Source of the DNA: Pontiellaceae bacterium
Lineage (GTDB): Bacteria; Verrucomicrobiota; Kiritimatiellia; Kiritimatiellales; Pontiellaceae
Direction: 5' to 3'
NCBI GenBank assembly: GCA_016937945.1
Contig: JAFGVP010000102.1
Span: forward strand, 20,227-84,226
Length of the DNA stretch: 64,000 nt
Below are positions 1 to 8,940 of the stretch, in pieces. Each line of letters opens with the position of its first letter. Within the stretch, counting starts at the first letter, position 1. Under the pieces are notes generated by a model. The model did not search any database. It was not told the DNA's origin and saw only the letters and a program-made list of their open reading frames with translations. The translations under genes were made by a program, and so were the position numbers.

Positions 1-157
1 GTCCACCCGGCCTCCGAGATAGGAAACAGCCATCATCCGGATCATGTTCTCTGCTTCCGCTTTTGCTGCCGGGCTCTCGGCCAGCTGGTAATGAATCCAC
101 AGGGAATCAGCCGAAGCACCAATCAGGGGACGAAGCTGTCGGCAGAGACGAAGGAGT

Positions 158-1060
158 TCATCCGTCACGTTCGTACCAGAGATTGTGGATCAGCACCTCC
201 TTGCGTTCCACGCCCCTCGTTCCTTCCGACACCTTGGTGTTGCCGAGCGAATACTTGGTTTCGATGGATTCTATCCTGAAGTCCGAAAAAATCATCCGCA
301 CTTCCGGCGTATCGTTGAGCGACAGGATAAAACTGCCGTTGATGGTCCTGAGCGTTTCGGCCAGCGTCCTGAAATCCTTTCCGGAAAAGGACACCGCATA
401 AAAGTCGGCATTCCAGTACGGCGGGTCGATGTAAAAGAACGTCTGCGGCGAATCATATTTTCTAATGCAGTCACACGCATCGAGGTTTTCAATGGTGGTA
501 CGAGCCATCCTTTTATGGGTTTCTCGAAGCTGCTCCTCGACAGACGGCAGGTTCAGGGAACTCGGTCGGGTGGAACTGGTGCCAAAGGTTCTATTCACCA
601 CTTTGCCGCCGTAACCCATCCGTTGCAGCCGGTAGTAACGAACCGCCCGCTGAACATCGGTAAGCAGGGACGGGTCCTGTTTCGACTCCAATTGAAACTG
701 TTCCCTCGAAACGAGGGTCAGGTCGATGCAGCGAAGGAATTCCGGCAGATGGTTTTTGACGACTCTCCAGAAATTAACCAGTTCTCCATCTCTATCATTG
801 AGGATTTCAACCCTGCTTTGCGGCTTGGTGAAATAGACCCAGGCTCCGCCGCAGAAAGGTTCCACATAACAGGTATGTTCCGGAATCCGTTCGACGATTC
901 GTTTGGCCAGGCGGGATTTTCCGCCGAGGTACCCCAGCGGACTCTTCATTGGTTTATCGATGATTGCGGTGTTTTGTTCTGCCGTGGTATCGGCGTTGGC
1001 ATCGGTTGTCGGGTCAGCGTTTGTTTCATCGCTGGTTGCTTGTGTGATTGTAGTGGTCAT
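158..1060 (-). CDS. Dam-family (D12 class) N6-adenine DNA methyltransferase
   Basis: Translation shows 'SPLGYLGGKSRLAKRIV...YVEPFCGGAWVYF' (Dam motif I / F-x-GG) and 'FFYIDPPYWNADF' (DPPY motif IV). The ORF track extends to 1177; I chose the first ATG (1058-1060), which begins a Thr/Ala/Asp-rich N-terminal extension. Confidence 0.8.
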   Translation of the reverse strand: MTTTITQATSDETNADPTTDANADTTAEQNTAIIDKPMKSPLGYLGGKSRLAKRIVERIPEHTCYVEPFCGGAWVYFTKPQSRVEILNDRDGELVNFWRVVKNHLPEFLRCIDLTLVSREQFQLESKQDPSLLTDVQRAVRYYRLQRMGYGGKVVNRTFGTSSTRPSSLNLPSVEEQLRETHKRMARTTIENLDACDCIRKYDSPQTFFYIDPPYWNADFYAVSFSGKDFRTLAETLRTINGSFILSLNDTPEVRMIFSDFRIESIETKYSLGNTKVSEGTRGVERKEVLIHNLWYERDG

Positions 1061-1511
1061 TTTGAATGGGATAACGTGCGGAAGGAAAGCGGGAGCTACC
1101 CGGTTGCGGCATCCTCCGGGGCATTGCCGACAGGAACCGGCTTCTTGCCTGGTTCCGTGAAAACCCTTCCCATGCATTGAGGAAGTCGCGCATCACCTGC
1201 GTCAGGTCGCGCCAGCATTCCGTGTTTTCCCGGCGTTTAGCGCTTCTGATCCGCTCCGCCTTTTCCCGGAGCTGTGCTTCAAGGCCCATGGTTCCAAGTC
1301 CCCGGTCAATGTTCGCCCGGTCGAGCTGGAGCAGGCTGCTGTCCACCGAAAGTTCTTCGCTCAGGAGCTCCTGAAGATGTCCGGCCCGAATCCGCAACCG
1401 CTCTATGATCTGGACCGCTGCGACCTCAAGCCGGGTCTCGGTCAGTTCGGAACGACCGTTCATCATGGATTCAATGGCAGATTGTGCAGAGGATTCCGGG
1501 AATTGTTTCAT
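1026..1511 (-). CDS. hypothetical protein; its 3' end overlaps the methyltransferase start
   Basis: 161-aa ORF directly upstream of the methyltransferase on the same strand, overlapping it by ~35 nt. No recognisable motifs. Could be a controller-like small protein or spurious. Confidence 0.3.
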   Translation of the reverse strand: MKQFPESSAQSAIESMMNGRSELTETRLEVAAVQIIERLRIRAGHLQELLSEELSVDSSLLQLDRANIDRGLGTMGLEAQLREKAERIRSAKRRENTECWRDLTQVMRDFLNAWEGFSRNQARSRFLSAMPRRMPQPGSSRFPSARYPIQNDHYNHTSNQR

Positions 1512-1525
1512 GGTCGGTACCGCAT

Positions 1526-1547
1526 GTTACCCTTGGAGGGAGGTAAC
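1526..1547. promoter_or_regulatory. inverted repeat GTTACC-N10-GGTAAC in the divergent intergenic region, a candidate operator for the wHTH regulator
   Basis: GTTACCcttggagggagGTAAC seen directly. Lies between the divergent hypothetical/methyltransferase operon and the regulator gene. Confidence 0.25.
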
Positions 1548-1683
1548 GGACGTATTCACTGAAAAGTGCTCGCACTCCCTTAAAAACAAAGTGCCGGATC
1601 ACTGGGATAGGACGAGCGCAATACTGTCAACTTCCCACCGATTCGTGGGCAAACATCTGTAACCATACGACGGTTCTTCTCGC

Positions 1684-2277
1684 ATGGATCAAAAACCGAC
1701 GTCCGAAAGCCCGGTCCGGGGCAGACAACGCCAGGCAGTCTATGCGGCCTTGAAACATCCGGCGACCGGAAGGCAGATTCTTGAAGCTGCCCGGAAGACA
1801 GCGCCATCCATGAGTTATCAGGACCTTCGCCACATTCTGCGTGATTTTCAGGACAAGGGACTCGTGATCTGCCTGAACCCGGAACAACAGACAGGACGAC
1901 TGTATTCATTGGCAAACTTTTGGGAAAATTTATCCCGAAACGCGACCTTGATTTACCTCTCTTCCCGAATAAGCCGGGCAAAAACACGGCTCGCCGTTTT
2001 AAAGGAGGTGGCCAAGGAACGTTTCTTTGAATCCCGGCCATTGACTGCAACAACAATCAGGAAACTGATGAGAGAGAGCTATCCGATGGGGCTCAACCAT
2101 GTACTGGCGGCGCTGAAATTCCTGGAGGGACATGGGGTCATTGAAGTCTGCGGATACACGGATAAGCGGGAGCTTAAAATCTACCGGATCACCAATCTCG
2201 GACGGAACGTCATGGAAGGATTGCTTCAGGAAAGAACTGATTCTGTCACGGAAAGTACCCCTAACAGAATGCCTTAA
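1684..2277 (+). CDS. putative winged-helix DNA-binding transcriptional regulator
   Basis: 197-aa protein with two wHTH-like segments ('YQDLRHILRDFQDKGLVICL...GRLYSL' and 'LNHVLAALKFLEGHGVIEV...KIYRITNLG'). Convergent with the large NTPase and overlaps its 3' end by 17 nt. Confidence 0.5.
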   Translation: MDQKPTSESPVRGRQRQAVYAALKHPATGRQILEAARKTAPSMSYQDLRHILRDFQDKGLVICLNPEQQTGRLYSLANFWENLSRNATLIYLSSRISRAKTRLAVLKEVAKERFFESRPLTATTIRKLMRESYPMGLNHVLAALKFLEGHGVIEVCGYTDKRELKIYRITNLGRNVMEGLLQERTDSVTESTPNRMP

Positions 2278-5200
2278 GATCTTTTTCCGTAACATAGGGA
2301 AAAAGAACCTCTGCGCGTTTGCTGATTTCAGCACGGAAGCTGGATTTCTTTTGCTCATGACAGCCAAAGTTATCCATCAACTCGGTTTCAATGAGGTTCA
2401 ATAGGTTTCCATATGCTTTTTGTAGCTCATCTATAGAATCCTGAAGATTTTTGATGTAGTTTTCAGCATTAGCTTTGTTTCCGTCCTTGGACGAAATCGG
2501 TTCGCATCCACAAGCAACCGGAAGCAGCTCGAACAATAACTTCAAAGGATCGCGAGCATCCATAAGCGCATCCCGGACGGCCACAGTGGTTGGTGATATG
2601 CTCTTGGTCTTTTGGGAGTACGGGGGCAAGCCTGCCACCAAGATGCACAATGGGCGAACCACATCCAATAATTCGGGTTCATTCGATAACTTTAAGATAT
2701 TTAAGACAGATGCCAGGCGTTCGAACGCATCAGTTCGCAACCCAGATACATTACAGTATTGGAATTCAAAAATTTCGGGTTTTTTAGTTAAGCGAAGGAA
2801 TTCGGCACCTGTTAGTTCACTGATAAATGTCCCGTTTTCATAACAGGCGATATTTTGCTTGTTGATCGCGTAGAAAATGGCGAGCAGTAGCGGGGCTAAA
2901 CCTCCCCTTATTCCGTATGGAGCCTCGGATAGCTCTCCTAGCAGAACATCGACTGAGACGGGGTCATCTACTTCATCCTTTAGGCGCTTTTCCAAGTAGC
3001 TAAACGTTGGTCTTAAGTTGAGGATGTCCATACGTTTACTTGGAATCTCAAAATGGGCTGATTCACCAGTCGAGACATGTAGTGCACCCGCTTGAAGTAC
3101 CGACATGTACATAGACATTTCTGGAGGCTTCTTAGTTTGATCCATTCCCAAGAAAGGCTTGTCCGGAAATTCCAAAACTCCCTCAATTAGGCGCATTCTT
3201 GCCGCGGCGGCCGCTGAGCTGATATTACGACGATTGATAAGCTCATTATTTATGAGCGGAGCCTCTTCATAAAGGTCATCGCAAATATCTGACAATGCGG
3301 ATATAAGGGCCTTGCCGGAAGAAACGTTAAGGGGTTCACCTTTCCAGAAGCACTTAAGTGAAAAGCTTCTACCAGTTTGATCAAATCCAATAGCATTACT
3401 GATGGCCTCTTCCAAGGCTAGTTCTGCTGCCACCCGTTTCCTGGATACGGTTTCCCGAGCGTATTTGTCCCCATTTAGCTCTGGGGTGTTTGTGGCGATC
3501 CACTCCCACACCTGAACCTCTCGAATGAGCGGAGTCAGCCTTTGGAGTTGCCCGGGAATAATCACCAGACAATTCCTTAGATCATTGAATTCGGAGGACT
3601 GAGCTTTTTTTATGGCCTCTGCAACATCTGCTTTATTTAAGCACAAGGGTGTGAGAGCTACACCGTCAGCATCGATTTCCAGCAAGCGTGATGGATCGGA
3701 CAAATCAGAGGGTTTGCAAAATGCGATCGGAAAGTGGCGCAAGTTACCGGTTTCTATGTAATGTCGCCTTGCCACAAGATTGGTATTCTCAAGGTGGGTT
3801 TTGATGAATTCGGTTGGGCTTGTTACTGGTCCAATCATGCTTTCGGCAGACTCTTGTGCCCTCTGCAAGTCAGCGCTTATGTGAGGCCATAGGCACAAGC
3901 CTCCTGCTCTTCCACGATCAAATAAAACGCGTTTACCCTCATCCGACTGGAGGGACTGCACGGCTGCATGAACTCTTTTGTCGTCTACCCGGCCAGTGAT
4001 GCAAAGTGAAACCACCTCCGGCGTCGCTTTAAGGTCGTTGTTGTTCAATAGATTAAACACGCCAACCGTTTTAACGATCTGCGCATGGAGCGGCTGATCC
4101 GTGATATACGAGCCGACCATCGAGTCGATGGTTGTCCAATGAGTCGATGAAAAGGATGAAGCTAGGTGGTGCCCAAGGTTCGAGTGAATATAATCGTAGA
4201 AATTATGTGTTCGATAGGGTTCGTTTTCGCTGAAACCCAGAAACGATTGCAACGCATATGCTTCACTTCCAAATAAAAAGCTAAAGATCGACCTTTGGTT
4301 TTGCCCGAATCTATGGAGAACTCGGCTAAGGAGAGGCAGCACAGATGGGTCTAATGGATATATTGTATGAGCAATTTTATTCAAGCTACCCATATTTGCC
4401 CCGGCACCATACCATCCTTGCTGAACCGCCTGATCCATGGCCTTGCGTGCATTTGTGATTTGCGATGGAGTGAGGTTTTTCGCGTCAACATTCAGGGCTT
4501 CGCTGACCAATGCTGTGGTCTGTTCCATCGGATGCTGAAACACGATTTCATCATATCTACCGGCAACCTTCTCCCATTCATGTTTTGCCGTTAGTCCTAG
4601 TGCAGATGCATATGCGCCAAATCCTTGGTGCAAAATTCCGATGATGAAAAATGGCGTGTTGCCGCTTCGTGATGCTTCTTCTGCCAAGCGTTGCATTAGA
4701 AATACATCACTTTCTCCGGCTTGTGATGCCGCAAACTCAAGGGATTTCCCTAGTTCGTCAATGATAAGAAGCAGACCTGTTCCTTTCTTGTCCGCTCTCA
4801 CTTTTTCATTTACAGCGGTCAGAAGCTCCAAAACCTCGCTATCGGTTAAGGATTCATGCTTAAGAATGGATGCGATTTTATTCCGACCTTGTCCAAACCC
4901 AGCAGGATAATGGTGCCTGATGGCATCCTCGATACCACGCCTGATCGTAGCGGACAAAGGCTCTCTAGAACCGGTAACGAGAATTGGGAGAAGATTGGGC
5001 TTCTCTGCATTGAGTCTTGAATAGGCCAGCTGGGTCGATAGTTTACCGGGGAACTTTCCCGCATGCCCGGCAAACCAATGGGCAAGGAGCAGGGCGAAGC
5101 TGGATTTGCCAGAACCATAGTCGCCAATGAGTCGCCAGCTTCTCTGACTCGAATCGCGACGCAGACCACTTGAAATTCTGCGCAGGCAATCGATAGCAAC

Positions 5201-5308
5201 ATCAGTCAGGACATATGAGGTTAGTGCCTTTCGGTCATAGAAATCCCGTTCTAGATGAGTAGAGCGGAGGAAGCGCTGGGGAGGCTTAATTCGGGGTTGG
5301 CTTTTCAT
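2261..5308 (-). CDS. large P-loop NTPase, BrxC/PglY-like or KAP-family-like (candidate defence ATPase, SspC-like)
   Basis: 1015 aa. Walker A 'GDYGSGKSSFALLLAHWF' (G-x-[WY]-G-x-GKS-x-F, as in KAP/BrxC NTPases). Walker B 'LLLIIDELGKS'. Low-GC sequence compared with the flanks. Start overlaps the stop of the upstream DUF4007-like gene (operon). Confidence 0.75.
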   Translation of the reverse strand: MKSQPRIKPPQRFLRSTHLERDFYDRKALTSYVLTDVAIDCLRRISSGLRRDSSQRSWRLIGDYGSGKSSFALLLAHWFAGHAGKFPGKLSTQLAYSRLNAEKPNLLPILVTGSREPLSATIRRGIEDAIRHHYPAGFGQGRNKIASILKHESLTDSEVLELLTAVNEKVRADKKGTGLLLIIDELGKSLEFAASQAGESDVFLMQRLAEEASRSGNTPFFIIGILHQGFGAYASALGLTAKHEWEKVAGRYDEIVFQHPMEQTTALVSEALNVDAKNLTPSQITNARKAMDQAVQQGWYGAGANMGSLNKIAHTIYPLDPSVLPLLSRVLHRFGQNQRSIFSFLFGSEAYALQSFLGFSENEPYRTHNFYDYIHSNLGHHLASSFSSTHWTTIDSMVGSYITDQPLHAQIVKTVGVFNLLNNNDLKATPEVVSLCITGRVDDKRVHAAVQSLQSDEGKRVLFDRGRAGGLCLWPHISADLQRAQESAESMIGPVTSPTEFIKTHLENTNLVARRHYIETGNLRHFPIAFCKPSDLSDPSRLLEIDADGVALTPLCLNKADVAEAIKKAQSSEFNDLRNCLVIIPGQLQRLTPLIREVQVWEWIATNTPELNGDKYARETVSRKRVAAELALEEAISNAIGFDQTGRSFSLKCFWKGEPLNVSSGKALISALSDICDDLYEEAPLINNELINRRNISSAAAAARMRLIEGVLEFPDKPFLGMDQTKKPPEMSMYMSVLQAGALHVSTGESAHFEIPSKRMDILNLRPTFSYLEKRLKDEVDDPVSVDVLLGELSEAPYGIRGGLAPLLLAIFYAINKQNIACYENGTFISELTGAEFLRLTKKPEIFEFQYCNVSGLRTDAFERLASVLNILKLSNEPELLDVVRPLCILVAGLPPYSQKTKSISPTTVAVRDALMDARDPLKLLFELLPVACGCEPISSKDGNKANAENYIKNLQDSIDELQKAYGNLLNLIETELMDNFGCHEQKKSSFRAEISKRAEVLFPYVTEKDLKAFC

Positions 5309-6216
5309 TCGTAAATTTCCCGCAATAACTCAGTGAGTGCCTGATCAAAATCGTCGAATTTTCTTTCAAGTGATCGGCTCGTAGACGAATCCGTGAAAAC
5401 AAAATAATCAGAATAGTTACCCAAGTCATTGAGCCGTTCTTGGATGCCTTCCCCGGAAAGCTTTAATATTTGTCCGGGACTACCAATATCGTTGACGATT
5501 TGTTCGAACGACAGCGTCCGCTCATCTGTGGCATTGAGGCACCAGTAATCTGTCAGGCAGTAAAGAAATAGTCCGAGGCTAATCTCAGGTTTTTCGCCTC
5601 GCCGGAAGGTATAGATTGGTTCTTTCCTGCCAAAGGAACCGTCTCGATCCCCTGCATATTCAATCAAGCGAAGTTGTACCAGTGGGCAGTCGAGATTATC
5701 TTCCACCACTTTATTCTTTTTCCCACGGGTTGGTACGTATGTGTGTAAAAAGACGCTTAACATGCTATCGAGGGAGTTTTTCGATAGCTTATGACTGCCT
5801 TCCAAATCTCGAATCATCATCGGCAGAATAACCGAGCCAACCATTTCTGATTCTTGCCACCGGTTTAACAAATAGTGCCACGCAAAAAGAGGCTCAGGTG
5901 CTGTCGAGAGTCGCCAGTGCAATAACCACAACGTTTGCGAGTCCTCTAGGTACGGATCAAGTCCATCAATGGGATCCAGCAAATCTCCCCCGAAAGGAGT
6001 CACCTCATATGCCCGTCCGCCATGGGACTCTATGATTCCGAGAAGCAAAGCCCAGAATCGGATGGAGCGAACCATATTCTTTCCTACACCAAGCAGCACC
6101 ATCGCCTGGTCTTCATCGGAAAAAACATCTCCATATGCTTTTACGGCATTATATGCCTTTGGTAGCCATGCATATCTAAATGCAAACGTCTCATGCCCGG
6201 AAAACTTGAAATCCAC
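5305..6216 (-). CDS. DUF4007-like protein (SspB-like candidate)
   Basis: 303 aa. N-terminus 'MDFKFSGHETFAFRYAWLPKAY', which I recall as characteristic of DUF4007 (the SspB family of the Ssp phosphorothioation system). GTG start with a GAGGG Shine-Dalgarno 7 nt upstream. Translationally coupled to the NTPase. Confidence 0.65.
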   Translation of the reverse strand: MDFKFSGHETFAFRYAWLPKAYNAVKAYGDVFSDEDQAMVLLGVGKNMVRSIRFWALLLGIIESHGGRAYEVTPFGGDLLDPIDGLDPYLEDSQTLWLLHWRLSTAPEPLFAWHYLLNRWQESEMVGSVILPMMIRDLEGSHKLSKNSLDSMLSVFLHTYVPTRGKKNKVVEDNLDCPLVQLRLIEYAGDRDGSFGRKEPIYTFRRGEKPEISLGLFLYCLTDYWCLNATDERTLSFEQIVNDIGSPGQILKLSGEGIQERLNDLGNYSDYFVFTDSSTSRSLERKFDDFDQALTELLREIYE

Positions 6217-7005
6217 AATAACCCTCGCTTAAGCCCAAAGGAGTCTGTCTCATAAATAAATGATCTGCTATGCGAAAAGCAAACTTCTGAAAGCCTTTGT
6301 GCCACATAGTGGCCACCATCAAACGTAATGTTTGCATAAATAATGGAAAAGGTACGAGCCAAGCCGACATTCCGCAAGCCCAACCCTATGGGAAGATATT
6401 ACCCGTTAGCTGCCTCGCAACTAGGAGTTTTAGTATTTTTTACTAACGAAGGGAGTATGCCAAGGAACCGACTAGTAGGGCGAATGCTCAGCAGTCACAA
6501 GTTTCAGAAAAAGGGGCGCTTTGCCTAAATCTCTATCGTCGTGTGCCGCTACGCCAGATTTCCACACCCAGAACATCAAAAAAAGTCCTATGAAGCACAA
6601 GGTGAAGGAGCATAACTAAAACCGTCTTCAAAGGTTCGCTTTTCCACTAGACTGGTGTCCTTGTTGGATGCATTGGGGATTAGTCTACAGTGCCGATGGA
6701 CTAAAAGTTCGCATTTCCATCAAGAATAGGGACCGGTCAAGATGTTCAGGGGTGCATGAAATTCCGGGCATTGAACTCATGGTTCGCATTGCCACCAAGA
6801 AAGGTGGCCAGTCGAGATATAACAGGGGTGTAACTCCAGAGAAGGCGGAGAGCGAACGGAGAATATGCCGCGATGCGGCGGTTTTAAGTGACCAGTTTTA
6901 GGTGTTTAGCGGGGATGGAGAAAACCCGAAATACCGCATTTATTGGCAAAAATGCTCGTAAAAATCAAAAAGCGAACCTCCGAAGAAGTTCGCTGGTTGA
7001 AAAAT

Positions 7006-7083
7006 TGGTCGGAGCGACAAGATTCGAACTTGCGACCTCTACCACCCCAAGGTAGCGCTCTAGCCAGGCTGAGCTACGCCCCG
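7006..7083 (-). tRNA. tRNA-Pro (anticodon GGG)
   Basis: Reverse complement gives CGGGGCG...CTACC-TTGGGGT-GGTAG...GGTCGCAAGTTCGAATCTTGTCGCTCCGACCA. The 7-bp acceptor stem has one G-U pair, the T-arm is GTTCGAATC, and a CCA is encoded. Anticodon loop TTGGGGT gives GGG. Confidence 0.85.
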
Positions 7084-7203: not shown

Positions 7204-8940
7204 ATGTACGCCATGAACAAAATTCCTACTATTACTGACGATCAACTGGAAAAATATTCATCGGCGATCTCCCTGTCGGACATGGAGATTTTTGTATTTC
7301 CGGAACTGCTTTACAGCCTGGTGCTGGCCAACATGATGTCGCCGCGCATCTGGGAGTGGAAAAACCACGATTGGTTCCGCAAACTCGATAATATGTCGCC
7401 TTATAAAAAGATCCAGCGGCTCAAGCAGTTCATCATCGACAACTATGAATTTAATCTGGATCTGGATACCTGGGGCCTGACCACCAAGCAGTCCGAGATC
7501 GAACGTTTTTCTCCCTACATGGACGAGAAAACCATCAGCCGGAGCAATGCCCTGTTCGGTTACGAGGGAGACAAACACTATTTCTCGCTCGATATCCGCA
7601 AACACTTTGGCCTGGATAAATATACTTCCAATATTATTCCCTTCTGGAAAACGGAGACGCTGGAGGCGATGGATGCGTTTAAGTTCAAGGATGAATACCG
7701 CGTTGGAGCCGGTGAATGCGTATCGCTCTCTACACTTTATGCGGCGGCGCTGTTTATCGTATGCGACATCCCGCTGGAGGATATTTTCCTGCTGGCAACT
7801 CCACTTCATTCACAGAATTTTGTAAACGTGAATGAGGGGATTCTAACCAACAACCGGCGTCTTGTGACCAAAAACATGTGGTTTAACGGAACCGACCTAA
7901 CAGCCAAGGCACAACGCGCGCTACGTAACGAGCAGGTTACTATCGTCGCGAACAATACGGGCTATATTCACACGGTTTATCCTGAAGCCACGATTTCTCC
8001 GAAGAGCTTTGAGACGTTCCGTCAGAAACTGGATGAATTCACAACGTCGGAAATCACCTTCGAAATCATTGCCAACTTCCTGCGCGACCGGTCGGAATAC
8101 CAGAAGTGTTTCCAGATCCGTTACATGCGGCATGGAAAGGCGCAATATCTTCCCATTGAACGGGCATTTGCCTACGAACACGGCTCTCCCTATAAGGTGT
8201 CGGACGATGCAACCCGCGATAAACTGCTGGAAGAAATCGATGAATATGACTTTTACACGGAACCGATTGCCGACCGCATTCTCCTCAACAAGCTGTCGGA
8301 TTACCTGAGAAACAACCCGATCTCACACTTTGATGAAAAGAGCATGACCGAGCTGGCGGAAACCATCGACTGCACCAACGACATGAGCCGCAAGATGTCG
8401 GTCATCGAAGGTCTGATTGACTTTATTCATCTTGAGCCGGAGTTGCCGGACGTAGGCAGCAAGCAGTTTGCCGGACCAGGCCCCATTTCCATAAAGCCCG
8501 GAATGACACGAGAGGAAATTATTCACTATCTGGAGGGATTGCGTGAAACCCACATGATTGCCGATCTGGCCTTCTATGCCTACCGCGATCTGGCAGTAAC
8601 CGACTGGAAGCCCTTCCTTAAAGCCGCGCTAGAACGAAACCCCGTGATTACGGAGGCCACGAATACCCTGTCTGACAGAGAGCTTATTGAAATCCTGCAG
8701 GCTCTTCCGAACGAATCGATCTATGGCGGAAGCCGCGTTGCCCAGCCGGACGAAGTCTGGAACTTCCAGCGGGGTGATGGACTGGAACGTGCAATCGCAC
8801 TGGCCGACGCGTGGAAACAACGACATACCAACGATCCGATTCATCTAGAGTCATCAGAAGGCCGTGTCACCCTGATGATGGGCGAAACGGAAGTTGTTTT
8901 TGAGTCATTCAAAGGCCTCACAAAATCGATCGATTTATAG
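7204..8940 (+). CDS. hypothetical protein, possibly transglutaminase-like cysteine peptidase superfamily
   Basis: 578 aa. 'RVGAGECVSLSTLYAAALFIVCDIP' resembles the transglutaminase-core G-x-C-x-x-[FL]-[AS] ... G-I-P motif, followed by 'LHSQNFVNV' (candidate His). Confidence 0.55.
   Translation: MYAMNKIPTITDDQLEKYSSAISLSDMEIFVFPELLYSLVLANMMSPRIWEWKNHDWFRKLDNMSPYKKIQRLKQFIIDNYEFNLDLDTWGLTTKQSEIERFSPYMDEKTISRSNALFGYEGDKHYFSLDIRKHFGLDKYTSNIIPFWKTETLEAMDAFKFKDEYRVGAGECVSLSTLYAAALFIVCDIPLEDIFLLATPLHSQNFVNVNEGILTNNRRLVTKNMWFNGTDLTAKAQRALRNEQVTIVANNTGYIHTVYPEATISPKSFETFRQKLDEFTTSEITFEIIANFLRDRSEYQKCFQIRYMRHGKAQYLPIERAFAYEHGSPYKVSDDATRDKLLEEIDEYDFYTEPIADRILLNKLSDYLRNNPISHFDEKSMTELAETIDCTNDMSRKMSVIEGLIDFIHLEPELPDVGSKQFAGPGPISIKPGMTREEIIHYLEGLRETHMIADLAFYAYRDLAVTDWKPFLKAALERNPVITEATNTLSDRELIEILQALPNESIYGGSRVAQPDEVWNFQRGDGLERAIALADAWKQRHTNDPIHLESSEGRVTLMMGETEVVFESFKGLTKSIDL

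Follow-up and report, generated by a model that had tools for sequence, protein, structure and literature searches.

Is a translationally coupled pair of genes, encoding a DUF4007 protein and a large P-loop ATPase beside a tRNA gene, a small defence system in its own right, or is it what remains of a larger one? The question is raised by a 64,000-nucleotide stretch of Pontiellaceae DNA (contig JAFGVP010000102.1, positions 20,227 to 84,226; hereafter the window, by which the whole 64-kb stretch is meant), in which two genes identified by sequence as sspB and sspC of the Ssp phosphorothioation system stand without sspD. An earlier sequence-only reading had proposed either a pared-down variant resembling Ssp or BREX (bacteriophage exclusion), or an uncharacterised two-component defence system based on a nucleoside triphosphatase (NTPase). 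Neither proposal held up: sspC is cut at a junction with foreign DNA, its relatives essentially always have the missing C-terminal domain and SspD, and the DNA methyltransferase encoded nearby comes from an unrelated mobile element. We conclude with good confidence that the locus derives from a canonical sspB-sspC-sspD(+effector) island, acquired horizontally beside tRNA-Pro, of which only a decayed stump is left.

Ssp systems phosphorothioate single-stranded DNA, placing a C-PS-C linkage in CCA, and comprise SspABCD-SspE and SspBCD-SspFGH (Vibrio cyclitrophicus FF75, E. coli 3234/A, and V. anguillarum FF-93). SspB is the nickase, a triple winged helix-turn-helix (wHTH) subunit responsible for choosing the site and nicking it; SspC is an ORC/Cdc6-type ATPase; and SspD, a DndC-like ATP pyrophosphatase, is in charge of the sulfur chemistry, for which SspA or IscS supplies the sulfur (PMC8092258, PMC10853773). 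The sspBCD genes are "typically a three-gene operon", and many sspBCD loci have no known effectors, so that an adjacent effector is optional (PMC8092258).

Family assignment of the gene pair

The upstream gene, sspB (5305..6216, minus strand, GTG start), is intact and encodes a 303-aa protein of the triple-wHTH nickase and DNA-recognition type, which the sequence-only reading had already taken for DUF4007/SspB. Profile searches confirm this: the protein covers the Pfam DUF4007 profile from end to end (1.3e-68, profile positions 1-288/288), matches PADLOC SspB (4e-96), aligns over its whole length with the SspB structures PDB 6JUF/6LB9 (E=2.2e-27), and is 70% identical to the SspB of an intact SspBCD locus, gapless and at equal length. 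The downstream gene, sspC (2261..5308, minus strand, ATG start), encodes an ORC/Cdc6-type P-loop ATPase of 1015 aa from which the C-terminal ~126 residues are missing. PADLOC SspC models recognise it with up to 1153 bits (profile positions 1-996 of 1053), and one PADLOC BrxC model also matches (2.4e-113, 378 bits); SspC and BrxC have both been placed in the ORC/Cdc6 AAA+ clade (PMC10853773, PMC12839542). The only Pfam match of this protein is a sub-threshold one to AAA_16 (E=0.0014, 19.6 bits against a cut-off of 32.6). Of its earlier description as BrxC/KAP-like, the relationship to BrxC therefore stands, and assignment to the KAP family was rejected because Pfam KAP_NTPase is unmatched. No NCBIfam model was found for either protein, and no solved structure was matched by the SspC sequence.

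The motifs singled out in the sequence-only reading are present in the translations, namely FSGHETFAFRYAWLPK in the 303-aa protein, and Walker A GDYGSGKSSF and Walker B IIDELG in the 1015-aa protein. The two reading frames do overlap by 4 nt, the ATGA within ...GAATGAAA..., as had been described. Judged by these matches, the pair is a genuine sspB and sspC of the known Ssp phosphorothioation system.

Type 4 BREX loci (BrxC, DUF4007, PAPS reductase, PglZ, and BrxL) are another conceivable source of such a pair. In type 4 BREX, DUF4007 is frequently fused to PAPS reductase, whereas the DUF4007 protein of the window stands alone at 303 aa. Type 4 BREX has SspB-, SspC-, and SspD-like components (PMC12839542), and the BrxC match would fit a fragment of such a locus; however, the SspC models outscore BrxC by 1153 to 378 bits, the genes that come after SspB-SspC-SspD in the closest loci are of the GmrSD/SIR2 or SspF/SspH type, and neither PglZ nor BrxL is reported among the families in the relatives' contexts examined. 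PADLOC and Pfam likewise found no PglZ, BrxL, or BrxP in the open reading frames (ORFs) flanking the pair in the window and in L002 (a Logan contig identical to window 1-7034 that reaches 2.4 kb further left), the window's more distant ORFs not having been scanned for PglZ or BrxL. None of the three is among the precomputed Pfam families of L090, a second contig of the same metagenome-assembled genome (MAG) that reaches 9.8 kb left of the window. It is therefore extremely improbable that the pair derives from a BREX locus.

Truncation of sspC at a junction with foreign DNA

The sequence-only reading gave the size of the ATPase correctly as ~1000 aa but could not reveal that this is abnormal for a family of ~1140-1155 aa. 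Among the 120 best SspC matches listed, nearly all homologues, the closest ones (51-65% identity) included, are 1136-1160 aa long. In two alignments (A1 and A2), the window SspC ends directly after the invariant '...L-KAFC', whereas full-length homologues run on past KAFC with 'FRLKD...' for ~126 more residues, and ~27 positions in this missing tail are nearly invariant. At the base level, the window tracks the sspC of its nearest relatives to 'AAG GCA TTC TGT T' and then diverges, which indicates that the junction itself gave rise to the TAG stop (2261-2263), one base after the Cys codon of KAFC. In an AlphaFold model of a 65%-identical full-length homologue (mean predicted local distance difference test score 78; 77-89 around the break), the break point falls inside predicted helix 1010-1020, and the part lost beyond it would comprise the rest of this helix, four more helices, and one beta-hairpin. 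The window SspC is thus not a domain-boundary isoform.

Other species were surveyed with one genome per species, giving 80 SspC loci in which the tail and SspD were checked by tblastn. The tail coding region follows directly after the shared part in all of the other-species loci with room for it (79/79). A natural SspC isoform of ~1015 aa was considered and rejected, as its sole candidate (P0056, 1013 aa) proved to be a frameshifted nanopore contig that keeps a 130-aa tail ORF and SspD. Three further proteins (P0002, P0070, and P0087) continue past KAFC before they stop. One of these, P0002 (L006 2638-5877), is the closest homologue of the window SspC (71% identity) and, with 1079 aa, is also a short protein; only 40 nt separate its end from that of its contig, which is 5.9 kb long and of low coverage. 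It may represent either a further, independent truncation or an artefact of the assembly end.

These results bear on the possibility that SspB and a short SspC form a genuine pared-down two-gene system, either alone or with the Dam-like methyltransferase and HerA-like ATPase encoded nearby. Such a system would be expected to have intact, translationally coupled ORFs with no excess damage at conserved positions, as is the case here. However, the SspC stop was made by the junction, inside a predicted helix, and a short or tail-less SspC was found in no other species among the 80 loci. The bearing of the methyltransferase on this possibility is considered below, with the element that carries it.

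The transition from sspC-derived DNA to the adjacent cassette takes place within ~70 nt (2192..2264), where homology to full-length SspC ends at 2264 (tblastn) and DNA homology to a related element (L088) ends at L002 4843, equivalent to window 2192. Since the source is a MAG, the join between sspC and the neighbouring wHTH gene could be chimeric, with an intact sspBCD in the real genome, and two assemblies do break ~950 nt away (1300-1313), a hint of graph complexity or strain variation. However, the junction (~2263) is identical in the NCBI MAG contig (GCA_016933135.1, Pontiellaceae, Kiritimatiellota) and in the Logan assemblies of two runs (SRR13394436 and SRR13394437), which were produced by a different assembler. 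Furthermore, no contig with the missing sspC tail was recovered from this lineage, the nearest full-length SspC being only 65% identical to that of the window, and the junction is not affected by the break at 1300-1313, which falls on the side of the element. An assembly artefact is thus a highly unlikely explanation of the truncation. With regard to the break itself, MAG contig 049 ends at window 1300 and contig 020 starts at 1313 (14-nt overlap); Logan SRR13394437 also breaks there, and the sequence is continuous in Logan SRR13394436 and in the window. Strain variation in the population, or the presence of a second element copy, is suggested by this pattern.

The retained 3.96 kb of the pair is fully open, and SspB is collinear with its intact homologue. 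The window SspC deviates at 4.8% of conserved columns, compared to 2-13% in intact members of its clade, and no decay signal was found at conserved sites of its retained part. As there is no extra damage in what remains, the deletion event was probably recent, or else some residual function persists.

Absence of sspD, effectors, and a sulfur donor

That SspD is absent had been noted from the sequence and was borne out, as none is present downstream of sspC, elsewhere in the 64 kb, or in the 9.8 kb past the left edge. Pfam and PADLOC searches gave no PAPS_reduct/SspD match among the flanking ORFs, and two SspDs used as tblastn queries found nothing in the window, L002, or L090. In the same three sequences, tblastn with the SspC tail, SspA, and the GmrSD, SIR2, and 807-aa effectors of relatives returned only noise (E > 0.04). 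PADLOC found no SspE, SspF, SspG, or SspH among the neighbours, and an SspA-like cysteine desulfurase was not matched by tblastn in the window or its flanks. No Ssp remnants were thus found in ~17 kb of island and flanks, nor in the rest of the window. Past the left edge, where the sequence-only reading had advised looking for further components, L002 and L090 contain no sspD, sspA, or relatives' effectors detectable by tblastn.

In the survey, SspD lies adjacent to SspC or within 5 kb of it in 65/66 informative loci, which are those with at least 6 kb of downstream sequence (59 adjacent; 6 after two extra genes). The lone SspD-less locus, L030 (5953-13591; Gemmataceae MAG), appears decayed in its own right. 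Its SspC is full-length and the two extra genes are present, and its 391-aa protein corresponds only to the C-terminal FtsK-like part of SspH (4e-189, profile positions 1377-1766); this SspH fragment is followed by an HNH protein and SspA. The lack of SspD is thus accounted for by damage and not by a new design.

The survey also revealed a second Ssp architecture (L052 13414-20766; also L056, L074, L078, L083, and L084, and probably L025, L062, and L065). In these loci, a ~790-aa double-HATPase_c (GHKL) protein and a ~700-aa protein with no family match are encoded between sspC and sspD, and SspD and SspF come after the two inserted genes. Both inserted genes are outside the coverage of the PADLOC Ssp models.

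It is conceivable that the pair functions in trans, if genes at other sites of the genome supply SspD, SspA or IscS, and an effector and if SspC is still active in its truncated form. An unlinked IscS can stand in for SspA (PMC8092258), the MAG is incomplete, and both ORFs are intact. However, the linkage of SspD in nearly every informative locus speaks against this, and the window's MAG is not among the 120 best SspD matches listed (nearest SspD as query; at least 63% identity). In addition, SspC would have to act without a conserved domain that contains the ~27 nearly invariant residues. Complementation in trans is therefore very improbable.

The nearest intact SspBCD loci are in Pontiella sp. 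MAG JBNLGU010000016.1 (L004/L007) and on JGI contig Ga0502371_0000309 (L005). Both L004 and L005 have the order DUF4007(303)-SspC-PAPS_reduct(269)-GmrSD_N-further effector-like genes, and L004 also has a convergent cysteine desulfurase. The candidate effectors of L004 (14260-18611) are GmrSD_N (NsnA-like), SIR2_2, and an 807-aa protein without assigned function; those of L005 (14369-23438) are GmrSD_N, a Ser/Thr kinase, a 618-aa protein, MAD7, and a 1746-aa FtsK-like protein. These differing sets suggest that effector cargo turns over fast downstream of a conserved modification core.

The adjacent integrative element

Beyond the junction, the window and its left flank (1-2277 and beyond) are collinear with elements found on three other contigs (L087, L088, and L089), at 71-73% DNA identity and 79-85% identity for an ATPase encoded in all of them. 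The gene that meets sspC encodes a 197-aa wHTH regulator-like protein (1684..2277, plus strand; weak HxlR/PadR wHTH matches) and is convergent with sspC, its last 14 nt lying in sspC-derived sequence. Alignment shows a complete wHTH core and a tail that is 10-14 aa longer than in 2/3 homologues. In L087-L089, the wHTH homologues adjoin a tyrosine integrase, which completes the cassette immediately downstream of the wHTH gene. In the window copy, the integrase is absent on both sides, and the truncated sspC occupies its expected position.

The remaining genes form a minus-strand operon in the order orf161, methyltransferase, DUF87 ATPase, orf113, and orf78. The first, orf161 (1026..1511; called as 146 aa), has no family match, and its position is kept in L087-L089 as ORFs of 156-178 aa. 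It is followed by a D12-class (Dam-like) N6-adenine DNA methyltransferase (158..1060; 300 aa as called, with the longest ORF extending to 1177), which matches Pfam MethyltransfD12 (3.2e-28), PADLOC MTase_II (1.1e-72), and the phrog_56 DNA methyltransferase (9e-82) and whose position in the cassette is conserved in L087-L089. The next gene encodes a HerA/FtsK-like DUF87 ATPase (5' end at 1..168; 445 aa when whole) that runs past the left window edge and is complete in L002 (6867-8204) and in L090. This protein matches Pfam DUF87 (3e-10), PADLOC mad8 (3.5e-11), and HerA (~1e-10); relatives at 75-85% identity are common in Kiritimatiellales-type contigs, and no viral relatives were found. That it might be a remnant of SspH or DndH was rejected, as the matches are weak and at the level of the P-loop (mad8 3.5e-11, DndH 0.004) and SspH is not matched. 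The cassette is followed directly on its far side by what look like core genes, namely a 229-aa ORF, TrkA, TrkH, and a Na/Ca exchanger.

The cassette extends over window 1-2277 plus L002 4758-8786 or L090 1-3065, and in the relatives over L087 3888-9106, L088 6441-11922, and L089 6459-11685. In full, it is a ~5-kb set of a tyrosine integrase, wHTH gene, ~160-aa ORF, D12 methyltransferase, DUF87 ATPase, ~112-aa ORF, and 78-aa ORF that is widespread in Kiritimatiellales/Verrucomicrobiota-type contigs, and it may be an integrative element, a satellite, or a defence-like methyltransferase and ATPase module. Further left, beyond TrkAH and ~8-8.4 kb from the window edge, a 214-aa ORF (L090 9063-9707, minus strand) has a C5 DNA_methylase Pfam match but is short for the family and may be a degraded restriction-modification remnant.

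The proximity of this methyltransferase to sspC (its operon is 1.1 kb away) is a further point that could be raised for a genuine two-gene or hybrid system, as is the precedent of methyltransferase/PAPS-reductase exchange between type 1 and type 4 BREX (PMC12839542). However, relatives of the methyltransferase, DUF87 ATPase, wHTH protein, orf161, and orf113 are found within 10 kb of SspC at 0/80 loci. The module is a self-contained element cassette that is free of Ssp genes in L088 and L089, and the sole contig with both the element and an intact SspBCD (L087/L005) has them ~26 kb apart. In the window, moreover, the wHTH gene lies between the two modules and is convergent with sspC. The lack of linkage and the ~26-kb spacing indicate that the methyltransferase is not a partner of SspBC, and a hybrid in which it replaces SspD was rejected on the same absence of cassette relatives from SspC loci and on the cassette's standing as an integrative element in its own right. 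A genuine two-gene system, with or without the cassette, is thus very unlikely.

Genomic setting beside tRNA-Pro

The gene pair does sit next to a tRNA gene, as had been claimed. tRNA-Pro(GGG) (7006..7083, minus strand; ARAGORN) is the sole tRNA in the window and is located 790 nt upstream of sspB, its 3' end pointing towards the pair; a terminator-like hairpin is present by it at 6971-6994. It is a probable integration hotspot and the right boundary of the island, and to its right are core genes (rhodanese, pseudouridine synthase, and a mur/ftsW division and cell wall cluster). The contrast in base composition reported in the sequence-only reading is real, with 46-47% GC and a third-position GC (GC3) of 0.47 in the pair compared to ~52-59% GC and GC3 of ~0.64 in other window genes, but the background is ~55% GC and not the ~60% given there. 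Low GC, the adjacent tRNA, and the integrative element alongside support the earlier view that the region was horizontally acquired. From tRNA-Pro to TrkA, the island spans ~9.5 kb and contains no integrase. Repeats of the tRNA-Pro end were not found in the first 9.4 kb leftward, where there is only one 12-nt inverted match, and att-type repeats of at least 11 nt were not found in the full 16.7 kb; gene content is therefore the sole criterion for where the island ends.

Between the tRNA and the rhodanese gene, on the side away from the pair, a 578-aa ORF (7204-8940, plus strand) has a GC content of 49.6%, below that of its core neighbours, and no match in Pfam, PADLOC, NCBIfam, or PHROGs. It may represent further acquired DNA.

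Origin and possible function of the locus

The most probable history of the decayed island starts from an sspBCD(+effector) island and an integrative element lying side by side next to tRNA-Pro. A single deletion or illegitimate recombination would then have removed the sspC 3' end (~126 codons), sspD, the effectors, and the integrase of the element. The lost effectors may have been SspE, SspFGH, or of the GmrSD type, as in relatives. Fusion of the two ends would have created the TAG stop of sspC and left the convergent wHTH gene reading 14 nt into sspC. A single event is suggested by the orientations, which fit the arrangement wHTH(+) [integrase(+) ... effectors(-) sspD(-) sspC 3' end(-)] sspC(-) sspB(-) tRNA(-), where the brackets enclose the segment that would have been lost.

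Several points weigh against this history or against complete inactivation. A single deletion is not directly demonstrable, and no ancestral arrangement with both islands adjoining in the order above was found; the one contig that carries both (L087/L005) has them in a different order as well as apart. The sspB and sspC frames are open and have no excess substitutions, so that some residual function may be under selection. Similarly, as the genome is a MAG, sspD may sit elsewhere in the real genome.

As the transfer of sulfur is the task of SspD and a conserved domain is gone from SspC, the decayed pair very probably cannot phosphorothioate DNA. Lacking an effector, it would also be unable to restrict phage. 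Alternatively, the truncated pair could still be alive, either as a modification-independent DNA-sensing module made of an SspD-free SspB and the SspC ATPase core, or as a hybrid with the methyltransferase/HerA-like cassette. The one observation in favour of a live pair is that both ORFs are intact without excess damage at conserved sites, and we regard the chance of it as very small. If true, the pair would be an evolutionary intermediate that shows how scaffolds of the BrxC/SspC type move between modification partners that are sulfur-based and methyl-based, and an active remnant would in this way inform the study of partner exchange by these scaffolds.

Nothing here points to retained activity, and the locus is of little importance beyond its correct annotation. 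It illustrates the turnover and erosion of defence islands at a tRNA hotspot, where two mobile modules are neighbours and a single deletion appears to have cost the one its core and the other its integrase. For orphan SspB-SspC or BrxC-like pairs in other MAGs, the length typical of the family should be checked before minimal or novel systems are claimed.

Comparison with known systems

The locus was compared to four kinds of relative. Like the mobile elements of Kiritimatiellales (L087-L089), the left part of the locus has the wHTH gene, orf161, methyltransferase, DUF87 ATPase, orf113, and orf78 in collinear order, but unlike them it has no integrase. In common with type 4 BREX, the window encodes a BrxC/SspC-type ORC/Cdc6 ATPase and a DUF4007 component; it differs in that SspC profiles fit its ATPase much better than BrxC profiles do and that PglZ, BrxL, and BrxP are absent from the sequences searched.

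The resemblance to the nearest intact SspBCD loci is closer. SspB is 70% identical to that of L004 and L005 and is 303 aa long in both, the ATGA-type coupling is the same, and the window SspC is 65% (L004) or 59% (L005) identical to theirs. However, in L004 and L005 SspC is complete with its tail (1141 and 1145 aa, respectively) and there is an SspD of 269 aa, whereas the window runs on into an unrelated element after sspC. With regard to the characterised Ssp systems, the window has a full-length SspB match, an SspC whose residues 1-1015 are homologous and include intact Walker A and B motifs, and the same succession of sspB and sspC, translationally coupled and within an island. In contrast to these systems, it lacks the C-terminal ~126 residues of SspC, sspD, sspA, sspE, and sspFGH. 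Of the tested features that define a functional SspBCD system, the locus lacks two, a full-length SspC (~1050-1150 aa) and SspD; it is a fragment of an already known system and not a new variant.

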